DNA of 64,000 bases from Holophagales bacterium (GCA_009845425.1 VXZQ01000001.1:194363-258362), one strand, 5' to 3'. Shown: positions 1 to 8,188, numbered from the stretch's first letter. The notes: a model not told the origin generated them from the letters alone. A program made the numbers and translations.

Positions 1-1962
1 TGGCAGGGCTTCCGCGACGGCCGCTCGGACATCCTCGCCCGCCGCCATGACGGTTCGCGCTGGTCGGCCGAGGAGACCGTCTCGACCTCGCCCGCCAACG
101 ACTGGACACCAGCGGTCGCGGCGTGCAGCGACGGTTCCGTCCACGTCGCCTGGGACACCTACGACCAGGGCAACTACGACGTGCTGATGCGGCGCTTCGA
201 GGGCGGCGCCTGGGGCGATGTCGCGCCGGTCGCCGACACCCCGAAGTTCGAGGCTCACGTCTCGGTCGCCTGCGACCGCCGCAACCGGCTCTGGGCGGCC
301 TGGAACGAGAGCGGTTTCCAGTGGGGCAAGGACTCGGGCTTCGAGATCTACAAGGAGGCGACCCGCCTCTACGAATGGCGCACCCTCGCCGTGGCGGTGT
401 GGGACGGCGTCCGCTGGCAGGTGCCCGAAGTCGACGTGAACGAGCTGCTCGAACGGGAGCTCCCCGAGTACATCCCGGGATTCAACGACCTGCCGGTGCT
501 CCGGGTCGACGCCGGCGGGCGGATGTGGCTCTTCTTCCGCCACCGCACGATCCGAGCCCGCGACACGCCGGACTTCACGCCGGCCCACCGGGCCGCCTGG
601 CAGATCTTCGGCACCGCCTACGTCGGCGGCGAATGGACCCGGCCGCTCCACCTGCCGTTCAGCCGCGGCCGCCAGGACGTGCGCTGGGAGCTGGCCTCGG
701 ACGGCCGCGGCAACCTGTTCGCGGCCTGGCCGACGGACAACCGGGACTCCGAGGAGTACCTCTTCGAACACTCCTCGATCAACGCGGCGAAGCTGCCGGC
801 GCTGACCGGCGAGGCCACGCCGCCCCGGCTCGTCGACCCGGACATCCGCGAGTACCACACCTATCCGGTCCATCCCAACGAAGCCGAGGATGTCGCCCGT
901 ATCCGTGCCTACACGATCGAGTCCGAAGGCCGCACTTACCGCATCTACCGCGGCGACACCCACCGCCACACCGAGTTCTCGCACGACGGCCTGAACGACG
1001 GCTCGTTGATGGAGGCTTACCGCTACGCCCTGGACGCCGCCGAACTCGACTTCCTCGGCGTCAGCGAGCACAACAACCGCGGCGGCCAGGACATCGAGTA
1101 CGTCAACTGGCTGCACCCGCAGATCGCCGACATCTTCCGCCTGCCGGGGAGCTTCGTGCCGGTCTACACCTACGAACGCAGCATCAGCTATCCGGACGGC
1201 CACCGGAACATCCTCTCGTCCAGGCGCGGCATCCCGACCCTGGAGATCACGGAGGCCGAACGACGGCACGAGGAGGGCGCGGCGCGGCTGTTCGCGTACC
1301 TCCGGGAGCACGACGCGATCTCGATCCCCCACACCTCGGCAACCGGCATGGGGACCGACTGGCGCGACAACGACCCCGAGGTGGAACCTCTCGTCGAGAT
1401 CTACCAGGGCGACCGGACTTCAGCCGAGTACGAGGGCGCTCCCCGGGCCGCCACCCGCGAGAAACCGATCGGCCAGCAGGGCGGCTTCCAGCCCGCCGGT
1501 TTCGTCTGGAACGCCTGGGCGAAGGGCTACAAGCTCGGCGTGCAGGCCGCGTCTGACCACATCTCGACCCACATCTCCTACGCCGCCACCATCGCCGAGG
1601 ACTTCACCGCCGGAGGCCTGCTCGACGCGATGAAGCAGCGGCACTCCTACGCCGCGACGGACAACATCATCCTCGACTACCGGATGCGCGCGAACGGCCG
1701 GGAGTACCTGCAGGGCGACATCGCCGAGGTCTCGGGGCGATTCGAGCTGGTCGTCAAGGTGATCGGCACCGCCCGCATCGAGCAGATCGACATCATCCGC
1801 GACCAGACCTTCCTCTACAACCGCCAGAACCTCGACCAGGAAGTGGACCTGACCTTCGTCGACAGCGACGTCGAGCCCGGCGAGCACTACTACTATGTGC
1901 GGGTGATCCAGAAGAACCGGGAGATCGCCTGGTCGTCGCCGATCTGGGTGACGGTCGAGTAG
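1..1962 (+). CDS. DUF3604-family (PHP-like metal-dependent phosphoesterase fold) protein with N-terminal BNR/sialidase-like repeats; 5' end lies outside the window
   Basis: Frame 1 is open from nt 1 and is the same frame as the listed ORF 181..1962. The translation has BNR-like S-x-D-x-G-x-W repeats (SxDGSVHVAWD), His-rich metal-site motifs (GDTHRHTEFSHDG, GVSEHNN) and the C-terminal '...EIAWSSPIWV' signature. That signature is shared with the C-terminus of the DUF3604 domain in the gene at 27545..31012 (EMAWTSPIWY). TAG stop at 1960-1962. Confidence 0.7.
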   Translation, partial: WQGFRDGRSDILARRHDGSRWSAEETVSTSPANDWTPAVAACSDGSVHVAWDTYDQGNYDVLMRRFEGGAWGDVAPVADTPKFEAHVSVACDRRNRLWAAWNESGFQWGKDSGFEIYKEATRLYEWRTLAVAVWDGVRWQVPEVDVNELLERELPEYIPGFNDLPVLRVDAGGRMWLFFRHRTIRARDTPDFTPAHRAAWQIFGTAYVGGEWTRPLHLPFSRGRQDVRWELASDGRGNLFAAWPTDNRDSEEYLFEHSSINAAKLPALTGEATPPRLVDPDIREYHTYPVHPNEAEDVARIRAYTIESEGRTYRIYRGDTHRHTEFSHDGLNDGSLMEAYRYALDAAELDFLGVSEHNNRGGQDIEYVNWLHPQIADIFRLPGSFVPVYTYERSISYPDGHRNILSSRRGIPTLEITEAERRHEEGAARLFAYLREHDAISIPHTSATGMGTDWRDNDPEVEPLVEIYQGDRTSAEYEGAPRAATREKPIGQQGGFQPAGFVWNAWAKGYKLGVQAASDHISTHISYAATIAEDFTAGGLLDAMKQRHSYAATDNIILDYRMRANGREYLQGDIAEVSGRFELVVKVIGTARIEQIDIIRDQTFLYNRQNLDQEVDLTFVDSDVEPGEHYYYVRVIQKNREIAWSSPIWVTVE

Positions 1963-1965
1963 CGG

Positions 1966-2721
1966 ATGGACGCAGTCTGGGTCCTGGTTTCGGCCGCGGT
2001 CGGCATCGGCTTCGTCCACACGCTGATCGGCATCGACCACACGCTGCCGTTCGTCGTCCTCGGCAAGGCGCGCGGATGGTCGTTGCGCCGAACGCTCTGG
2101 GTCACCGGACTGTGCGGAGGTGGGCACGTGGCCTCGTCGGTTCTGCTCGGCGGCGCCGGCATCGGGCTGGCCATCTTCGCGACCGGGCTGGACCTCCAGG
2201 AAGGGCACCACTGGATGGAGGGCCGCGTCGGCGTCTTCGAATCGATCGAGGCGGTCCGCGGCGACCTGGCGGCGTGGGCGCTCGTCCTGTTCGGTCTGTT
2301 GTACGCGGCGTGGTCCATGGCGCGCAGACGCCGGCAGCAGCGGCACGTCCACGAGCACGCCGGCGGGGTCGTCCATGCCCACGAGCATCCGGCGGCCGGC
2401 AGCCATCGCCACGCTCCCGGCGAAACCGTCGGCATTACCGGTCTCACCGCCTGGAGCCTGTTCGTCATCTTCGTGCTCGGGCCCTGCGAGCCGCTAATTC
2501 CGATCCTCATGGTGCCGGCCTTCCAGGTCGGCCTGTGGGCGGTGGTTCCGGTGACGCTGGCGTTCGCCGTGACGACGATCGCGACGATGGCTGGCGTCGT
2601 GGCGCTCGCCTACCGGGGCCTCGACTTCGTGCGGTTCCCCCGGCTACGGGCGCACGCGCACGCGCTCAGCGGGCTCGCGATCGCGAGTTCGGGCCTCGCC
2701 ATCCTGCTGTTCGCGGTCTAG
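1966..2721 (+). CDS. putative Ni/Co/Zn-type metal efflux permease (RcnA/NicO-like) with His-rich central loop
   Basis: ATG starts 4 nt after the upstream stop. The protein is polytopic: about six hydrophobic helices, split by a cytoplasmic loop RQQRHVHEHAGGVVHAHEHPAAGSHRHAPGE, with an HTLIGIDH motif in helix 1. This architecture is typical of RcnA-like Ni/Co efflux proteins, but the family assignment is an inference. Confidence 0.5.
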   Translation: MDAVWVLVSAAVGIGFVHTLIGIDHTLPFVVLGKARGWSLRRTLWVTGLCGGGHVASSVLLGGAGIGLAIFATGLDLQEGHHWMEGRVGVFESIEAVRGDLAAWALVLFGLLYAAWSMARRRRQQRHVHEHAGGVVHAHEHPAAGSHRHAPGETVGITGLTAWSLFVIFVLGPCEPLIPILMVPAFQVGLWAVVPVTLAFAVTTIATMAGVVALAYRGLDFVRFPRLRAHAHALSGLAIASSGLAILLFAV

Positions 2722-2734
2722 GACGCGCCGTCTA

Positions 2735-5700
2735 ATGGGCGCACACTTCCACGACGACGGGCACGGCCACTCGCACGGCCACGGGCTGCTGCAGCGGATC
2801 GGCTACATCGCGCTGTGCGTCGCGGTCGGCGTCCTGCTCCTGCTGTACCTGCTCGGGGTCGTCCGCACGGTCGCCGGCATCGACCTGGCGCTCATCCTCA
2901 CCCTGGTCGCCGGCTATCCGCTCATCCGCCACGCGATCCTGGACCTGCTCCAGGGACACTTCTCGTCGCACCTGACGATCGCGATCGCGGCCGGCGCGGC
3001 GGTGTGGATCGGCGAGTACTTCGCCGCCGCCGAGGTCATGTTCATCATGCTGATCGGCGAGGGGATCGAGCACTGGACGGTGGACCGCGCCAAGGGCGCG
3101 ATCGCCGGCTTCGTCGCCAGCCAGCCCGAGCAGGCGCGGGTGCTGCGCGACGGCACCGGGGAAACCGCGGAACTCGTGGCGCTCGGCGAGGTCGAGATCG
3201 GGGACCTGGTGCGGGTGCTCGCCGGCGAGCGCGTGCCGGTGGACGGGATGATCGAGCGCGGCGAGTCGTCCGTCGACCAGAGCAGCGTCACCGGCGAACC
3301 GTTGCCGGCGCAGCTCGGCGTCGGCGACGCGGTGTGGAGCGGCAGCCTGAACGAGTACGGCGTCCTCGACATCCGCTCCGAGCGGACCGGCAGCGACACG
3401 ACCGTCGCCCGGATCGCGAGTCTGATCGAGGACGCGCAGAGTCGCCGCGCCCGGGTCGTGCGTACTGCGGACAAACTGGCCCGGTTCTTCCTCCCCGCGG
3501 TGCTGGTCGCGGCCGGCGGGATCTACCTCTTCACCGGCGAGATGATGCGCACGGTGGCGGCGCTGATCGTGGCCTGTCCCTGCGCCCTAGTGCTGGCCAC
3601 GCCGGCGGCCATGGCTTCCGCGATCGCCCGGCTGGCCCGCGAGGGCGCGCTGGTCAAGGGCGGCGACGTGATCGAGTCGCTGTCGCGCATCGACGCCTGC
3701 GTGCTGGACAAGACGGGTACCCTCACCTGCGGGCGCCCCGCGCTGACCGCGATCGCGCCCGTCGGCGGCATGGCAGAGGATCGCCTGCTTCGAGCCGCCG
3801 CGAGCGCCGAGCTGACTTCCGAGCACCTGCTCGGCCGGGCCCTGGTCACCGAGGCCCGGGAGCGGCAGCTAGACCTTTCCGAGCCCGAGAACTTCAGGCT
3901 CCATCCGGGCCGCGGCGTGACGGCCACCGTCGATGGGCACGAGATCGCAGTGGGCAACCAGGCCTTGCTGGCGGAGGTCGTCGGCGAGGACGGGATGGAC
4001 GCCGTGGCCGCGAGCCTCGTGCCCACACCCGGCAGCGGCGAAACGCGGCTGGCCGTCGCCGTCGACGGCGCGCTGGCCGGCGCGCTCGCCCTTGCCGACC
4101 CGCTCCGCGATGAAGCGACCGAAGCGGTCGCCGACCTGCGTCAGGCCGGGGTCGATCCGATCGTCATGCTGACCGGCGACGCCGAGGGAACGGCGCGCAC
4201 GATCGGCCGCCGGGCCGGCATCGACCAGGTCCAGGCGGAACTGCTGCCCGAAGACAAGGTAGGCCGGCTCGGTGAGCTCTCCCGCGGCGACCGCAACGTC
4301 CTGATGGTCGGCGACGGGATCAACGACGCGCCGTCGCTCGCCGCTGCTTCCGTCGGCGTCGCGATCGGGCACGGCGCCGCCGACCTCTCGGCGGAAGCGG
4401 CCCAGGTCGTCCTGCTGCCCGACCGGCTCGACTACCTGGCGCCGCTGCTCCGCTACGCCCGCCGGGTCGTCGCCCGGATCCGGAGCAGCATCCTGATCTT
4501 CGCCTTCGGCATCAACTTCGTCGCCGTCGGCTTCGCCGCCTTCGGCTGGCTGCCTCCAGCCGCGGCGGCGATCGTCCACCAGGCCGCGTCGCTGCTCGTC
4601 ATCCTGAACTGCGTCCGCCTTCTCTACGAGGGACGGGCGGTGGCCGCGCGCGAAGACCGGGGCTTCGGCCGCTTCCGCATGCTGGCCGGTCCCGTCGACG
4701 GGCTGGTCGCCGCCTGGAAGGCGTTCAACGCCGGCCGCCGCGCGACGGTTCATCGCCTCGAACACGCGCTCGAGGACAGTCCCGCCCGCATCCGGTCGGC
4801 GGCCCCCCGGCTGCTGCGGGCGGCGCCGTTCGCGCTCGCCGCGATCTGGGCCGCGAGCGGCCTGCGCATGATCGATCCCCAGGAAGTGGGACTCGTCCAG
4901 CGCTTCGGCCAGCACCTCGGCGGCGAACTCGGCCCGGGCCTGCACCTGCGCTGGCCGTGGCCTGTCGATCGGGTGATTCGGGTCGAACCGGACCGCCTGC
5001 GGATGGCGGCAGTCGGCTCGCCGCGAGGAGCCGCTCCCGGCGAGGCCGGCGCAGAGCCGAGCTACGAGTGGAACGTGCGCCACGCCGGCTTCGACGAGAC
5101 GCCGCCGCTCGAACGCCTGATGCTGACCGGCGACGAGAACCTGGTCGAGGTCGCGGCCCGGATCCACTACCGGGTCGCCGACACCGCCGCATTCGCCTTC
5201 GCCGCGGCCGATCCCGCGCGACTGGTCGAAACGAGCGCCGAGCGGTCGCTGCGCACCGTGCTCGCCGGCCACTCGCTCGACGACGTGCTGACCGGCCAGC
5301 GCGACGGCATCGAGAAGGCCTGGCACACGCATCTCGCGGCGCTGCTCGAGAGCCTCGGCGCCGGCGTCGAGGTGGTGAACGCGACGGTTCAGGACGCCCA
5401 CCCGCCGCTCGACGTGGTCGACGCGTTCCGCGACGCGGCGAGCGCGCTCGAGGAGCGGGAGACCCTGATCGACGAGGCGGAAGGCTACGCGCTCGAGCGC
5501 CTGCCGATTGCCCGCGGCGAGGCCCGCCGGCAGCTCCTCGAAGCCGAGGCCTATCAGACCCGGCGCGTGGAGGCCGGCCGCGGCGAGAGCGAACGTTTCG
5601 CAATGCGCGCCGGAGCGTACCGACGCGCGAACGACCTGCACCGGTTCCGGCTCCAGCTTCAGACGATCGAAGATTCGCTTGCCGGCAAACCGAAACTGAT

Positions 5701-5815
5701 CACCGACGCGACCGGCGGCCGCAAGCGCTTCGTCTTCGTCGACGAAACGCCGGACCGCCTTCTCGATGTCTTCGTTCCTCCACCGGGTCCGGCCCAGAAC
5801 GAGGTTGACCAATGA
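2735..5815 (+). CDS. P1B-type heavy-metal translocating ATPase fused in frame to a C-terminal HflK-like SPFH (band-7) domain; His-rich N-terminus
   Basis: N-terminus MGAHFHDDGHGHSHGHG. The ATPase part has the CPC transmembrane motif (ACPCAL), DKTGTLT phosphorylation site, TGD and GDGINDAP motifs and a final TM helix. With no stop codon, the frame continues through a new TM helix (LLRAAPFALAAIWAASGL) into an SPFH domain with HflK hallmarks (LTGDENLVEV..., AFRDAASALEERETLIDEAEGYALERLPIARGEA...). Total length 1026 aa. Its TGA overlaps the next ATG (ATGA). Confidence 0.8.
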   Translation: MGAHFHDDGHGHSHGHGLLQRIGYIALCVAVGVLLLLYLLGVVRTVAGIDLALILTLVAGYPLIRHAILDLLQGHFSSHLTIAIAAGAAVWIGEYFAAAEVMFIMLIGEGIEHWTVDRAKGAIAGFVASQPEQARVLRDGTGETAELVALGEVEIGDLVRVLAGERVPVDGMIERGESSVDQSSVTGEPLPAQLGVGDAVWSGSLNEYGVLDIRSERTGSDTTVARIASLIEDAQSRRARVVRTADKLARFFLPAVLVAAGGIYLFTGEMMRTVAALIVACPCALVLATPAAMASAIARLAREGALVKGGDVIESLSRIDACVLDKTGTLTCGRPALTAIAPVGGMAEDRLLRAAASAELTSEHLLGRALVTEARERQLDLSEPENFRLHPGRGVTATVDGHEIAVGNQALLAEVVGEDGMDAVAASLVPTPGSGETRLAVAVDGALAGALALADPLRDEATEAVADLRQAGVDPIVMLTGDAEGTARTIGRRAGIDQVQAELLPEDKVGRLGELSRGDRNVLMVGDGINDAPSLAAASVGVAIGHGAADLSAEAAQVVLLPDRLDYLAPLLRYARRVVARIRSSILIFAFGINFVAVGFAAFGWLPPAAAAIVHQAASLLVILNCVRLLYEGRAVAAREDRGFGRFRMLAGPVDGLVAAWKAFNAGRRATVHRLEHALEDSPARIRSAAPRLLRAAPFALAAIWAASGLRMIDPQEVGLVQRFGQHLGGELGPGLHLRWPWPVDRVIRVEPDRLRMAAVGSPRGAAPGEAGAEPSYEWNVRHAGFDETPPLERLMLTGDENLVEVAARIHYRVADTAAFAFAAADPARLVETSAERSLRTVLAGHSLDDVLTGQRDGIEKAWHTHLAALLESLGAGVEVVNATVQDAHPPLDVVDAFRDAASALEERETLIDEAEGYALERLPIARGEARRQLLEAEAYQTRRVEAGRGESERFAMRAGAYRRANDLHRFRLQLQTIEDSLAGKPKLITDATGGRKRFVFVDETPDRLLDVFVPPPGPAQNEVDQ

Positions 5816-6783
5816 CCGATCACGACCATCATCAACACCACGACCACCACGGTCACCACCACGACGACGTGCACCGGCATGACGGCGGCGACGGGCACGA
5901 GCACTCGCCGCGCCGTGCCACGTCCTGGTGGCGCGCCGGCCTGGCCTTGCTGGCGATCGTTGCGCTGGCCCGGTCCGTCTTCGTCGTGCCGGAGACCGAA
6001 AGCGCGATCGTCACCCGCTTCGGCAAGCCGGTCCGAACCATCGAGAGTTCGGGACTCAAGCTGAAGTGGCCGATCGACCGGCGGCTTCGTTTCGACAACC
6101 GGGTGCTTCTCTACGATCCCGCCCCGGCCGAGTTCCTGACCCAGGACAAGAAGAACCTGGTCGTCGACACCGCGGTCGTCTGGCGGATTGCCGACCCGGC
6201 GCGGTTCCTGGAGACGATCGGCGACATCTCGGGCGCCGAGATGCGGCTTCACGACGTGGTCTGGGCCGGCCTCGCGGCCGCGCTCGGCCGCACGGAACTC
6301 TCGCAGCTCGTCTCCACGAAGCCGAAGCATCTCCGCATCGAGGAGGTCTCGGCCGAGGTCCGCGAGTCGGCGGTCGCCGTCTCCCTCCCCCAGCTCGGGG
6401 TCGAAATCCTCGAAGTCCAGCTCACCCGCCTGAGCTTCCCGGAGCAGAACCTCGAGTCCGTCTTCGCCCGCATGCGGGCGGAGCGCGAACGGATCGCGAA
6501 GGAGTACCGGGCCCAAGGCGAGGAACAGGCGATGATCATTCGCGCCGAGGCCGACCGGGACCGGGAGTTGATCCTGGCCGGCGCCTACCGTGAGGCCGAG
6601 ATCCTCCGCGGCCAGGGCGACGCCGAGGCGGCCGGCATCTACGGCGACGCCTACCGGCAGGACCCTTCCCTCTACCGCTTCCTGCGTACTCTCGAGTCCT
6701 ACGAGTCGATCCTCGACGACCAGACGACGGTCATCCTGTCGGCGGACTCGGAACTCTTCTCGCTGCTGGGCGGCTCCGAATGA
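5812..6783 (+). CDS. hflC: HflC-like SPFH-domain membrane protein with His-rich N-terminal tail
   Basis: N-terminus MTDHDHHQHHDHHGHHHDDVHRHDGGDGHEH, then a TM helix. The rest gives a strong HflC-like alignment by eye (VFVVPETESAIVTRFGK, LTQDKKNLVVDTAVVWRI, RMRAERERIAKEYRAQGEEQA...RGQGDAEAAGIYGDAYRQDPSLYRFLRTLESYES). ATGA overlap at both ends. Confidence 0.8.
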   Translation: MTDHDHHQHHDHHGHHHDDVHRHDGGDGHEHSPRRATSWWRAGLALLAIVALARSVFVVPETESAIVTRFGKPVRTIESSGLKLKWPIDRRLRFDNRVLLYDPAPAEFLTQDKKNLVVDTAVVWRIADPARFLETIGDISGAEMRLHDVVWAGLAAALGRTELSQLVSTKPKHLRIEEVSAEVRESAVAVSLPQLGVEILEVQLTRLSFPEQNLESVFARMRAERERIAKEYRAQGEEQAMIIRAEADRDRELILAGAYREAEILRGQGDAEAAGIYGDAYRQDPSLYRFLRTLESYESILDDQTTVILSADSELFSLLGGSE

Positions 6784-7712
6784 GGCGTCGCGCTATCCCG
6801 GCCGCGGCGCTGACCCTGGCGCTCATGTGGCTGGTCTGGGGCGTCTACTTCGTCGCCCCGGACGAGGAGGCGGTGACCCGCGTCCTGGGCAAGGCGCGCC
6901 CGACCGCGGCGGGGCCTGGCCTGCACTGGAACTGGCCGCGGCCCGTCGGCCGGGTGGACAAGCTGAAGGTGCGCGAAGCCAAGCGGCTGACGCTCGGCTT
7001 CGCGGCGGCCGACCGGGTGCTCGGCGGCGACGCGACGCCGGCCGAGGCGCGCTGGTTGACCGGCGACCGCAACGTCGTCCATGTGCGGCTCGTCGTCCTG
7101 TACGCGATCCACGATCCGCTCGCCTACTCGCTGCGCTTCGCCGGCGTCGAGTCGCTGCTCGAGACCAGCGGGCGCAGCGCGCTGCTCCGGGTGGTCGCCG
7201 GCATGGGTGTCGACGAACTGCTGACGACCGGCAAGGTGGCCGTGCAGCAAAGCGTCCAGGCCGCTTCGCAGGAGCTGTTCGATCGGTTCGGGACCGGCGT
7301 CACCGTCCTTTCCGCGAGTCTCGAAGGCGTCAGCCCGCCGAGTCTCGTCCGGGAGGCATTCAACGACGTCGCCAGCGCTCGCGAGGACCGCGACCGCCTG
7401 ATCCGCGAGGCGGAGAGCTACCGCAACGAGGTCGTACCGGTCGCGCGCGGCGAGGCGCGCGCCCTCGTCGCCGGGGCCGAGAGCTTCCGAACCGCCGAAG
7501 TCGAGCGCGCGACCGGCGAAGCCGACCGGTTCCGCTCGATCGCGAACGCCGACCAGGGGGCGCGCGCCGAGATCCGCACACGCACCTATCTCGAGACGAT
7601 GGAGCGGGTCCTGCCCCGCATGCGGAAGACGATCCTTGAACCCGGTCAGAGCACGATCGACATCGACTTCCTCCGCCGCGAGCTGACGACCGGGTCGAAC
7701 GGCCAACCGTGA
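6780..7712 (+). CDS. hflK: HflK-like SPFH-domain membrane protein (second HflK paralog in the operon)
   Basis: N-terminal TM helix, then LTGDRNVVHVRLVVLYAI... and AFNDVASAREDRDRLIREAESYRNEVVPVARGEA, which matches the HflK signature region. ATG overlaps the upstream TGA. Confidence 0.8.
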   Translation: MRRRAIPAAALTLALMWLVWGVYFVAPDEEAVTRVLGKARPTAAGPGLHWNWPRPVGRVDKLKVREAKRLTLGFAAADRVLGGDATPAEARWLTGDRNVVHVRLVVLYAIHDPLAYSLRFAGVESLLETSGRSALLRVVAGMGVDELLTTGKVAVQQSVQAASQELFDRFGTGVTVLSASLEGVSPPSLVREAFNDVASAREDRDRLIREAESYRNEVVPVARGEARALVAGAESFRTAEVERATGEADRFRSIANADQGARAEIRTRTYLETMERVLPRMRKTILEPGQSTIDIDFLRRELTTGSNGQP

Positions 7713-8188
7713 GGTTAAGCCGCAACCTCGGCGCGACCGCGCTGACCGTCGTGGTGCTCGCGGCCGGACTCGCCGTGGCGCTGCGCGACCGCCTGCCGGA
7801 GCGCGCCACGGATGCGGGTGATCCGAGCGACGTGTTCTGGGAGATGGTCGACGTCAGCCGCGAGGGCTCGACGGATGCCTATCTCGATCTCTTCGCCGGC
7901 GAGGTGCGCGAGCGACTGGAGACGGTACGCGACGAGATGGGCGAGGCCGCGTTCCAGCAGTATCTCCGCCAGCGGATCGCCGACCTCAAGGGGGTCGCCG
8001 TGACCGGCAGTGAAGATCTGGGCGGCACCGTGCGTCTCGAGGTCGAGTACGTCCGCGAGGCGAGCTACGAGACACAGAGCCTCGACCTGCGGGTCTCCCG
8101 CGGGCAGTGGCGCATCGTCGCCCTCGGACCGACGCACGAGCGCGAACCGCCGGTTCCCTACGGCACGCCGGTCGGCCCCGGCGACTGA
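7709..8188 (+). CDS. hypothetical membrane-anchored/secreted protein, last gene of the metal/SPFH operon
   Basis: ATGA overlap with the hflK-like stop. N-terminal hydrophobic segment ATALTVVVLAAGLAVAL. Codon usage is consistent with neighbouring genes. No recognisable domain. Confidence 0.45.
   Translation: MRLSRNLGATALTVVVLAAGLAVALRDRLPERATDAGDPSDVFWEMVDVSREGSTDAYLDLFAGEVRERLETVRDEMGEAAFQQYLRQRIADLKGVAVTGSEDLGGTVRLEVEYVREASYETQSLDLRVSRGQWRIVALGPTHEREPPVPYGTPVGPGD

Follow-up and report, generated by a model that had tools for sequence, protein, structure and literature searches.

To our knowledge, the roles and membrane clients of bacterial SPFH assemblies are largely unresolved beyond FtsH. 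In Escherichia coli, membrane proteins are enclosed by HflK and HflC, which form cages or nautilus-like structures (PMC12048511). In Mycobacterium tuberculosis, the proteins PacL1-3 scaffold and stabilise CtpC, CtpG and CtpV in "effluxosomes", and some PacL proteins have metal-binding tails (PMC13460109). Here we describe a gene from a Holophagales bacterium in which a P1B-type metal ATPase is continued, within one reading frame, by an HflK-type SPFH domain, and which heads a conserved module of four genes. It lies in a stretch of 64,000 nucleotides (GCA_009845425.1 VXZQ01000001.1:194363-258362), referred to below as the window. Gene fusions are among the strongest comparative-genomic signs of physical interaction, and we favour, with moderate confidence, the reading that this module encodes a self-scaffolded metal efflux platform, that is, a pump tethered to its own HflK/C-type scaffold.

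The fusion gene is an open reading frame (ORF) of 1026 amino acids (aa) that begins with ATG and runs through a complete P1B ATPase into an HflK-type SPFH domain that is itself complete, coiled coil included (Table 1), the same uninterrupted frame that the initial annotation of this DNA had reported. Pfam places E1-E2_ATPase at residues 129-302, Hydrolase (HAD) at 319-538 and Band_7 at 712-918. Both halves pass NCBIfam models as well: TIGR01525, for heavy-metal P-type ATPases, scores 530.3 bits (cut-off 346.25) over residues 80-629, and TIGR01933, the HflK equivalog, 175.9 bits (cut-off 159.4) over residues 711-993. The genome has a guanine-cytosine (GC) content of 72%, and the ORFs of the window include many long stop-free frames that arise by chance. 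Because high GC yields such chance frames, we examined the junction by the GC content of the three codon positions, which over the whole ORF is 0.78, 0.49 and 0.91. At the third position (GC3) it is 0.90 for residues 601-650, 0.90 for 651-700 and 0.86 for 701-750, much as in the rest of the gene, so that the junction and linker are coding and in the same frame. The exact 1026-aa sequence is present in GenBank as MYA06700.1, MYG32364.1 and MYI78468.1, from metagenome-assembled genomes (MAGs) of Holophagales and on 4 contigs.

The initial annotation had also proposed to ask whether homologs keep the fusion and whether its C-terminal part finds Band_7 or HflK models; the Band_7 and TIGR01933 matches answer the second question, and the first is likewise answered in its favour. 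All three Pfam domains occur together in 117 of the 120 best relatives from a collection of 5.8 billion proteins, at identities from 97% down to 42%. Of these 117, 112 are about 980-1115 aa long; the shorter, partial entries include P0059 (980 aa), P0086 (904 aa) and P0088 (868 aa). We also fetched 81 genomic loci and re-annotated them by phmmer. Pump and HflK share one stop-free frame in 74 of these; six of the other seven end at a contig edge, and in the last (L041) the pump is broken internally, as it also is in one of the 74 (L073).

The predicted structure agrees with this division into parts. We built an AlphaFold model of the monomer from a 38-sequence alignment, with a mean predicted local distance difference test score (pLDDT) of 74. 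Its best Foldseek matches are the P1B ATPases 7r0g, 4bbj, 4umw and 7qbz (E-values from 1e-41 to 1e-44). The C-terminal part is modelled as SPFH strands (residues 710-889), a 70-residue helix as in HflK (892-964) and a disordered tail, and it matches E. coli HflK (7vhp_E) with an E-value of 2.4e-32 over HflK residues 79-353. The further transmembrane (TM) helix ahead of the band-7 domain that had been noticed from the sequence is recovered here as TM9, which aligns with HflK residues 79-100, and Band_7, TIGR01933 and AlphaFold agree on what follows it. Since the pump ends in the cytoplasm and the N-side of HflK is also cytoplasmic, one added TM helix is enough to carry the SPFH domain across to the periplasm, where authentic HflK also has it. 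The fusion thus shows the features by which an HflK is recognised, namely a match to the equivalog hidden Markov model (HMM), a single TM helix with its N-side in the cytoplasm, a periplasmic SPFH domain, a long coiled-coil helix in the AlphaFold model and an adjacent HflC. The pump and HflK parts are separated by 42-73 aa in nearly all loci.

Compared with the E. coli HflK/HflC-FtsH structures (7vhp, 7wi3, 9cz1; PMC12048511), the C-terminal 340 residues of the fusion and the two proteins encoded directly downstream are HflK/HflC by HMM, and the two systems share a cytoplasmic N-side, one TM helix, a periplasmic SPFH domain and a long coiled coil. The differences lie in what has been added. 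Where E. coli HflK has a short cytoplasmic N-tail, the fusion has an entire 8-TM P1B pump, and on the predicted topology the pump would in effect substitute for that tail. The module has two K-type paralogs for one C-type protein, plus a fourth, NTF2-like protein, and it has His-rich HflC tails in many lineages and a clade-specific insertion in the fused SPFH domain. This insertion is lacking in HflK2, the free paralog, and in E. coli HflK. Its motif YEWNxxH, in fuller conserved form EPxxYEWNxxHxxGR, is present in 77 of the 83 fused ORFs in the fetched loci and in none of the 74 HflK2 or 77 HflC proteins.

The genes downstream are conserved as well. As in E. coli, K- and C-type genes lie side by side with coupled translation, and stop and start codons overlap at all three boundaries of the module (ATGA at 5812-5815, ATGA at 6780-6783 and GTGA at 7709-7712). 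HflC comes directly 3' of the fusion wherever a locus is long enough to show it. Where more than 3 kb of sequence is available downstream, as it is in 60 loci, HflC is always followed by HflK2, and 55 of these loci have the fourth gene, P159, as well. Even L001, only 44-46% identical, has the same four genes, its 160-aa P159 counterpart being 37% identical to that of the window. HflK2 matches E. coli HflK with an E-value of 3.6e-32. P159 has no Pfam family, its match to Rv0361 C-terminal models being weak and below cut-off, and a fold search returned a generic NTF2-like fold with no functional lead; we presume that the protein is periplasmic. No convincing terminator was found inside the module. 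The scan for promoters and terminators was otherwise uninformative: the terminator count is below the shuffle expectation, and the sigma-70 consensus may not apply to the host phylum. The initial annotation did not mention the HflC, HflK2 and NTF2-like genes as parts of one conserved system with the fusion.

Table 1. Features of the fusion gene, its module and the flanking genes, in window coordinates
Feature	Position	Strand	Basis or remark
CehA/McbA-like PHP (DUF3604-like) metallohydrolase, 5' end beyond the window	1..1962	+	NF038032, 50 bits (below cut-off); PF12228
U251, polytopic membrane protein, 251 aa, with His-rich loop HVHEHAGGVVHAHEHPAAGSHRHAPGE	1966..2721	+	no family
Fusion gene, P1B-type metal ATPase + linker + TM9 + HflK-type SPFH domain, 1026 aa	2735..5815	+	ATG start
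His-rich cytoplasmic N-terminal tail, residues 1-16, MGAHFHDDGHGHSHGH	2735..2782	+	sequence; pLDDT <50
P1B ATPase core, residues 17-631, 8 TM helices and A, P and N domains	2783..4627	+	TIGR01525; AlphaFold pLDDT mostly 80-90
TM4 CPC metal-site motif, C281-P282-C283	3575..3583	+	invariant in alignments; 71/73 loci
DKTGT phosphorylation motif, D325-T329	3707..3721	+	invariant in alignments
TM6 H615-Q616 subtype signature (HQxxS...N...RL), with TM5 N594 upstream	4577..4582	+	invariant in alignments; HQ in 69/73 loci
Cytoplasmic linker, residues 632-683, Arg-rich	4628..4783	+	pLDDT <50, predicted helix 651-681; GC3 0.90
Ninth TM helix (TM9), residues 684-707, counterpart of the single N-terminal TM of HflK	4784..4855	+	pLDDT 72-88
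Periplasmic HflK-type SPFH domain and long coiled-coil helix, residues 708-1000	4856..5734	+	TIGR01933; AlphaFold
SPFH insertion, residues 763-802, with YEWNxxH motif (777-783)	5021..5140	+	low pLDDT
HflC-type SPFH partner, 323 aa	5812..6783	+	TIGR01932, 217.9 bits (cut-off 134.4)
His-rich cytoplasmic N-tail of HflC, residues 1-31, MTDHDHHQHHDHHGHHHDDVHRHDGGDGHEH	5812..5904	+	sequence
HflK2, second, free HflK paralog, 310 aa	6780..7712	+	TIGR01933, 182.3 bits (cut-off 159.4)
P159, membrane-anchored NTF2-like protein, 159 aa, invariant C-terminal PYGTPV	7709..8188	+	
DUF1214 protein, 397 aa	8207..9400	+	linked to the module only in the window's clade
Sulfotransfer_3 sulfotransferase, 419 aa	9405..10664	+	

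The catalytic motifs of the pump half are intact. All the motifs listed in the initial annotation are in place (CPC at residue 281, DKTGT at 325, LTGD at 479, GDGINDAP at 526), as is TGEP at 186, and across 38 sequences of 42-96% identity TGE, CPC, DKTGT, TGD, GDGxNDxP, the TM6 His and the N-domain His are invariant. SEHP is the N-domain "HP" nucleotide-site motif of P1B pumps; here S362-E363-H364 are kept and the window reads SEHL (residues 362-365, 3818..3829), the Pro being replaced by L, A, T or I throughout the pump::HflK family. The TM helices carry the signature (A/G)CPCAL(V/I)LATP in TM4, N594 in TM5 and H615-Q616-x-x-S...N...RL in TM6, where wider pump::HflK representatives have HQ or, less often, HE.

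This signature sets the pump apart from its described relatives. P1B-1 pumps for Cu+/Ag+ (CopA) have YN in TM5 and MxxSS in TM6, and P1B-2 pumps (ZntA/CadA) have CPC in TM4, Lys in TM5 and DxG in TM6, in most cases together with an N-terminal HMA domain. We rejected P1B-1, since neither YN nor MxxSS is present and the Cu-family model TIGR01511 stays below cut-off (385.1 bits against 397). We rejected P1B-2 as well: CPC is present, but TM5 has N594 and TM6 H615-Q616, the fusion has no Pfam match to an HMA domain, and the ZntA equivalog models score well under their cut-offs (340 against 1240 and 377 against 1005). In P1B-4 pumps (Co/Zn/Cd/Ni/Fe) the TM4 signature is SPC, in P1B-6 pumps it is SCA, with N-X18-H-N-X-(S/T) between TM5 and TM6, and CtpC, with CPC, has been called "P1B-6-like" (PMC13460109). 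The best solved sequence relative by phmmer is a P1B-4 pump, Sulfitobacter sCoaT (7qbz, "cadmium translocating P-type ATPase"; 335 bits over residues 4-630). Like our pump it has an 8-TM core with no HMA domain, a His-rich N-terminus (H..DDGHNHAHG), the TM6 His at the same position and an ending in ...N..RLL. Unlike our pump it has SPC and HEGST (H615-Q616 aligns with the HE) in place of CPC and HQAAS, and it has no C-terminal extension, so that P1B-4 was rejected by signature though it supplies the nearest solved relative. P1B-6 does not fit either, because TM4 has CPC rather than SCA and the spacing is N594-X20-H615-Q-A-A-S; in style the pump is similar to P1B-6, as is CtpC.

Judged by its sequence, then, the pump represents a separate CPC/HQ subtype with kinship to P1B-4, and it probably exports a divalent transition metal of the Zn/Co/Ni/Cd/Fe class rather than Cu(I). 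This assignment follows from four observations: the Cd-family model TIGR01512 is above cut-off, the Cu-family model is not, 7qbz is the nearest solved relative and the Cu(I) signature residues are absent. The same observations favour the earlier suggestion of Zn, Co, Ni or Cd over Cu, which had been drawn from a His-rich N-terminus, MGAHFHDDGHGHSHGHG, that we also see. The label "Cu+-exporting ATPase" that databases attach to such proteins is probably wrong for this pump subtype.

His-rich tails are found on the scaffold as well as on the pump. We took N-terminal tails from stop-to-stop ORFs, and gene starts are therefore approximate. The HflC tail of the window, MTDHDHHQHHDHHGHHHDDVHRHDGGDGHEH, precedes the TM helix and so lies on the cytoplasmic side. 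HflC tails with at least four His occur in 27 of 69 loci, spread over several separate clades that include the window's own and Bryobacterales (for example MHEHSHHHGHDHGHHH); L001 lacks one. The pump N-tail is His-rich in the window's clade and some relatives and not in many others, and it is His-poor in Bryobacterales and other clades that have a His-rich HflC tail. A metal-binding tail on HflC would be hard to explain unless the scaffold itself takes part in metal handling.

A second, independent line of evidence for a link between scaffold and metal comes from HflK domains joined to exporters of other kinds. An exhaustive HMMER search with residues 601-1026 against 1.84 billion cluster representatives (50% identity) was made, and the best 150 matches were classified: 59 are fused to a pump, 29 to a CDF transporter (Cation_efflux, PF01545; for example P0141, P0142, P0154, P0174 and P0224) and 6 to ArsP_1 (PF03773; for example P0177, P0212, P0247 and P0265), the remainder being 4 proteins with other N-extensions of more than 200 aa and free proteins or fragments. 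One HflK lineage is joined to three unrelated families of metal or metalloid exporters. The HflK domains of the CDF and ArsP fusions score 150-225 bits to the window's linker and HflK part. Like the pump fusions, these proteins have an N-terminal transporter, then a TM helix, then SPFH, with HflC downstream; HflK2 follows HflC in L083, headed by ArsP::HflK, and in L084, headed by CDF::HflK. In L087 a CDF::HflK gene is followed by HflC only, beside a DtxR-family repressor and FeoB. Unlike the pump fusions, their cargo is a secondary transporter, the loci examined have neither P159 nor a His-rich HflC tail, and YEWNxxH is mostly missing. Four HflK-like proteins of 576-627 aa (P0217, P0246, P0248 and P0258) have N-extensions of about 270-300 aa to which the pump, CDF and ArsP queries gave no match; these may be further cargo types of the same HflK lineage.

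The architecture and its conservation, the intact catalytic motifs, the conserved partners, the His-rich tails and the parallel exporter fusions are all observed, and they are best explained by a self-scaffolded efflux platform. In this reading the pump would be a working divalent-metal exporter, joined at its cytoplasmic C-terminus to a periplasmic HflK domain by way of a flexible linker, about 50 residues long, and TM9. The fused HflK, the co-translated HflC and the free HflK2 would co-assemble into a ring or cage of the HflK/C type, which the NTF2-like P159 would probably join, and such co-assembly would hold the pump permanently in its own SPFH microdomain. The His-rich cytoplasmic tails, those of HflC and in the window also that of the pump, may line the cytoplasmic rim of the assembly, where they could capture or buffer metal beside the pump entry. 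We speculate that HflK2 might dilute the fused subunit and so space the bulky pumps around the ring. The parts of this picture that we infer are that the proteins co-assemble into a cage, in what stoichiometry they do so, that metal is handed over and which metal it is.

The nearest functional analogue is the PacL-Ctp effluxosome, in which P1B exporters likewise rely on, and cluster with, dedicated single-pass scaffolds encoded alongside them (PMC13460109). The PacL proteins differ in being small, separate DUF1490 proteins, with a GxxG motif in the TM helix and EA repeats, rather than SPFH proteins, and none of the module proteins matched DUF1490/PacL. Two further comparisons can be drawn. Stomatin-family proteins act on ion channels (stomatin on ASIC, MEC-2 on MEC-4, podocin on TRPC6), so that here too an SPFH protein acts on a specific transport protein, although non-covalently and at the cytoplasmic face. 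Some P1B-5 pumps carry a C-terminal hemerythrin domain, which is likewise an added domain but a soluble sensor rather than a scaffold.

Several points weigh against a self-scaffolded platform. About 60% of loci have no His-rich HflC tail, so that the system must be able to do without it. Sequence conservation in the linker is poor, and its model is of low confidence. Our models are of monomers; by homology to E. coli HflK/C, K and C subunits would alternate around a patch of membrane, as in the 24-mer cage or the nautilus form, and the pump might lie inside or outside such a ring. The TM signature CPC/N/HQ fits no characterised subgroup, and the metal is assigned by sequence resemblance. A neighbour-joining tree of HflK domains, which places the CDF- and ArsP-fused domains among the pump-fused ones, has no support values and includes fragments. 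Finally, the named hosts are all uncultured MAGs.

The strongest competing explanation is quality control coupled to FtsH. Here the fused HflK, HflC and HflK2 would form a canonical enclosure that holds FtsH hexamers. The fusion would either expose the pump to FtsH or shield it from FtsH, and the abundance of the pump would thereby be set by proteolysis, possibly in a metal-dependent manner. All three SPFH proteins do pass the HflK/HflC equivalog cut-offs, which carry the name "FtsH protease activity modulator", the match to E. coli HflK is strong (E-value near 1e-32), and E. coli HflK/C binds FtsH and governs its access to membrane substrates (PMC12048511). The initial annotation had offered microdomain targeting and FtsH coupling side by side. 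Of the two, the microdomain has gained from the HflC and HflK2 partners, the HflC His tails and the CDF and ArsP fusions, and FtsH coupling has gained nothing: a scan for HExGH and Walker A found no FtsH-like ORF in the 64-kb window or in the flanks (up to about 8 kb per side) of the 81 loci. This negative is weak evidence, since in E. coli ftsH is likewise not linked to hflKC. Coupling to FtsH would also leave unexplained why the cargo is always a metal or metalloid exporter, drawn from three unrelated families, and why HflC should have His-rich tails; a second K-type paralog would also be superfluous in a canonical complex. The residues that contact FtsH do not map clearly, and HflK2 differs there. 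The nearly invariant R840 of the fusion aligns with E. coli HflK R193, close to the reported HflK-FtsH contact Arg191 (PMC12048511), which is a point in favour of FtsH; the contact was not used because its mapping is ambiguous, the chain numbering giving A191 and R193. Taken together, we think it unlikely that FtsH-coupled turnover is what the fusion is for.

A different possibility is that the SPFH enclosure is a periplasmic chamber for metallation or discharge, in which exporters sitting inside it release metal under the periplasmic vault, either to load a secreted metalloenzyme of the CehA/PHP type or to pass metal on to the NTF2-like protein, and not just for detoxification. Some P1B pumps do serve the metallation of exported enzymes (CtpC, CcoI/FixI). 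A CehA-like enzyme is encoded upstream on the same strand in 13 of 13 loci of the window's clade (L002-L014); of the 68 distant loci, 22 have one in the vicinity of the module, mostly upstream and on the same strand. The conserved fourth gene encodes a membrane-anchored protein that is presumed periplasmic, the YEWNxxH insertion of the clade holds potential metal ligands on the periplasmic side, and HflK/C does enclose periplasmic space (PMC12048511). Against this, most distant loci have no CehA-like gene, the CDF and ArsP fusion loci have no P159, and YEWNxxH is restricted to a clade (25 of 59 pump-fused representatives, 3 of 29 CDF-fused and none of 6 ArsP-fused); that the pump sits inside the ring is itself an assumption. 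We regard the chamber as decidedly unlikely.

Elements of this chamber can also be added to the platform that we favour. In a large set of bacteria, HflK/C-type SPFH cages might then be dedicated exporter enclosures, with the transporter (P1B pump, CDF or ArsP) in the wall, export into or out of a walled-off patch of membrane, the His tails as a metal antenna and a periplasmic vault for discharge or for metallation of NTF2-like and CehA-like partners. We hold this fuller version to be rather unlikely, and mention it because, if true, it would give the bacterial SPFH cage its first defined client other than a protease and its first function as a compartment.

It is also conceivable that the pump half transports nothing and instead senses metal or acts as a regulator, steering an HflK/C assembly with some other function. 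The altered "HP" motif, in which the Pro is never conserved, and the missing HMA domain would be in keeping with this. We consider it highly improbable, as every catalytic and transport motif is invariant over the 38 aligned sequences and the CDF and ArsP cargoes are transporters as well. A sequencing or assembly artefact, in which a lost stop codon or frameshift has merged two separate genes, could appeal to the long chance ORFs typical of high-GC genomes and to three near-identical database entries with the ATPase part alone (P0090-P0092), and we give it virtually no credence, because GC3 stays near 0.9 through the junction, identical proteins come from independent assemblies and more than 500 relatives, from several phyla and with identities of 34-97%, keep the fusion.

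How widespread is the self-scaffolded pump? A genome scan with an alignment of the junction and HflK gave at least 581 confirmed relatives; in each of the best 80 the match starts at pump TM5 and reaches the end of HflK. Hundreds of bacteria from soil and water have the arrangement. Most hosts are Acidobacteriota (Thermoanaerobaculia/"Ca. Multivorans", Bryobacterales, Blastocatellia, Terriglobia and Acidobacteriaceae), with single MAGs labelled Gemmatimonadaceae, Armatimonadia, Acidimicrobiia, Clostridia and Ca. Zipacnadia. Thermoanaerobaculia/"Ca. Multivorans" is the clade to which the window itself belongs, with identities of 79-95%. Public names for these proteins cover one half only ("FtsH protease activity modulator HflK", "HflK protein", "Cu+-exporting ATPase", "cadmium-translocating P-type ATPase"), with the consequence that surveys of metal resistance and of SPFH proteins each overlook the other half of the fusion. 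The initial annotation had held the architecture to be undescribed, and we too found no paper on a pump::HflK fusion, nor on the CDF::HflK and ArsP::HflK fusions, in full-text literature whose coverage omits most subscription journals, though hundreds of database entries exist under these partial names. A systematic study of the evolution of prokaryotic SPFH proteins mentions neither transporters nor metals (PMC2636767). The component families are known; what appears to be new is the covalent pump::HflK architecture, the conserved four-gene module and the repeated fusion of a single HflK lineage with exporters of three families.

Having found such a fusion, one may ask what it offers beyond its own hosts. 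Metal efflux would be a concrete class of client for an HflK scaffold, and the fusion would provide a stoichiometrically tethered complex suited to structural work. It would also extend the principle of the scaffolded pump to Acidobacteriota and other phyla, in parallel to the mycobacterial PacL-Ctp effluxosomes. For the P1B family, it defines a new signature, CPC/N/HQ.

We also clustered flanking ORFs all against all, after filtering out the antisense ORFs that high GC produces, and found no conserved metal-sensing regulator near the module; the only recurrent neighbours in distant loci are the CehA-like gene and a TonB-receptor-like protein (16 loci), which is of a kind common in Acidobacteria. 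The CehA-like protein is about 930-970 aa long; it appears to start with a signal peptide, and its N-terminal half is rich in repeats (L003 2589..5501, L064 3426..6221). In the window's clade its gene adjoins the 251-aa gene or the module in all loci but L005, L011 and L012, which have it 0.6-3.6 kb further upstream. It is possible that this enzyme is a client or accessory of the module. U251, encoded between the two in the window, is confined to loci of the "Ca. Multivorans" clade; Pfam and NCBIfam gave no match with a threshold of E <= 10, and the distant L001 lacks a counterpart. U251 reads HTLIGIDH near its N-terminus, which we take to resemble the HxxxGxDH of HupE/UreJ-like proteins, and it may be an uncharacterised metal permease. 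On the other side, the DUF1214 and Sulfotransfer_3 genes trail the module with gaps of 4-18 bp.

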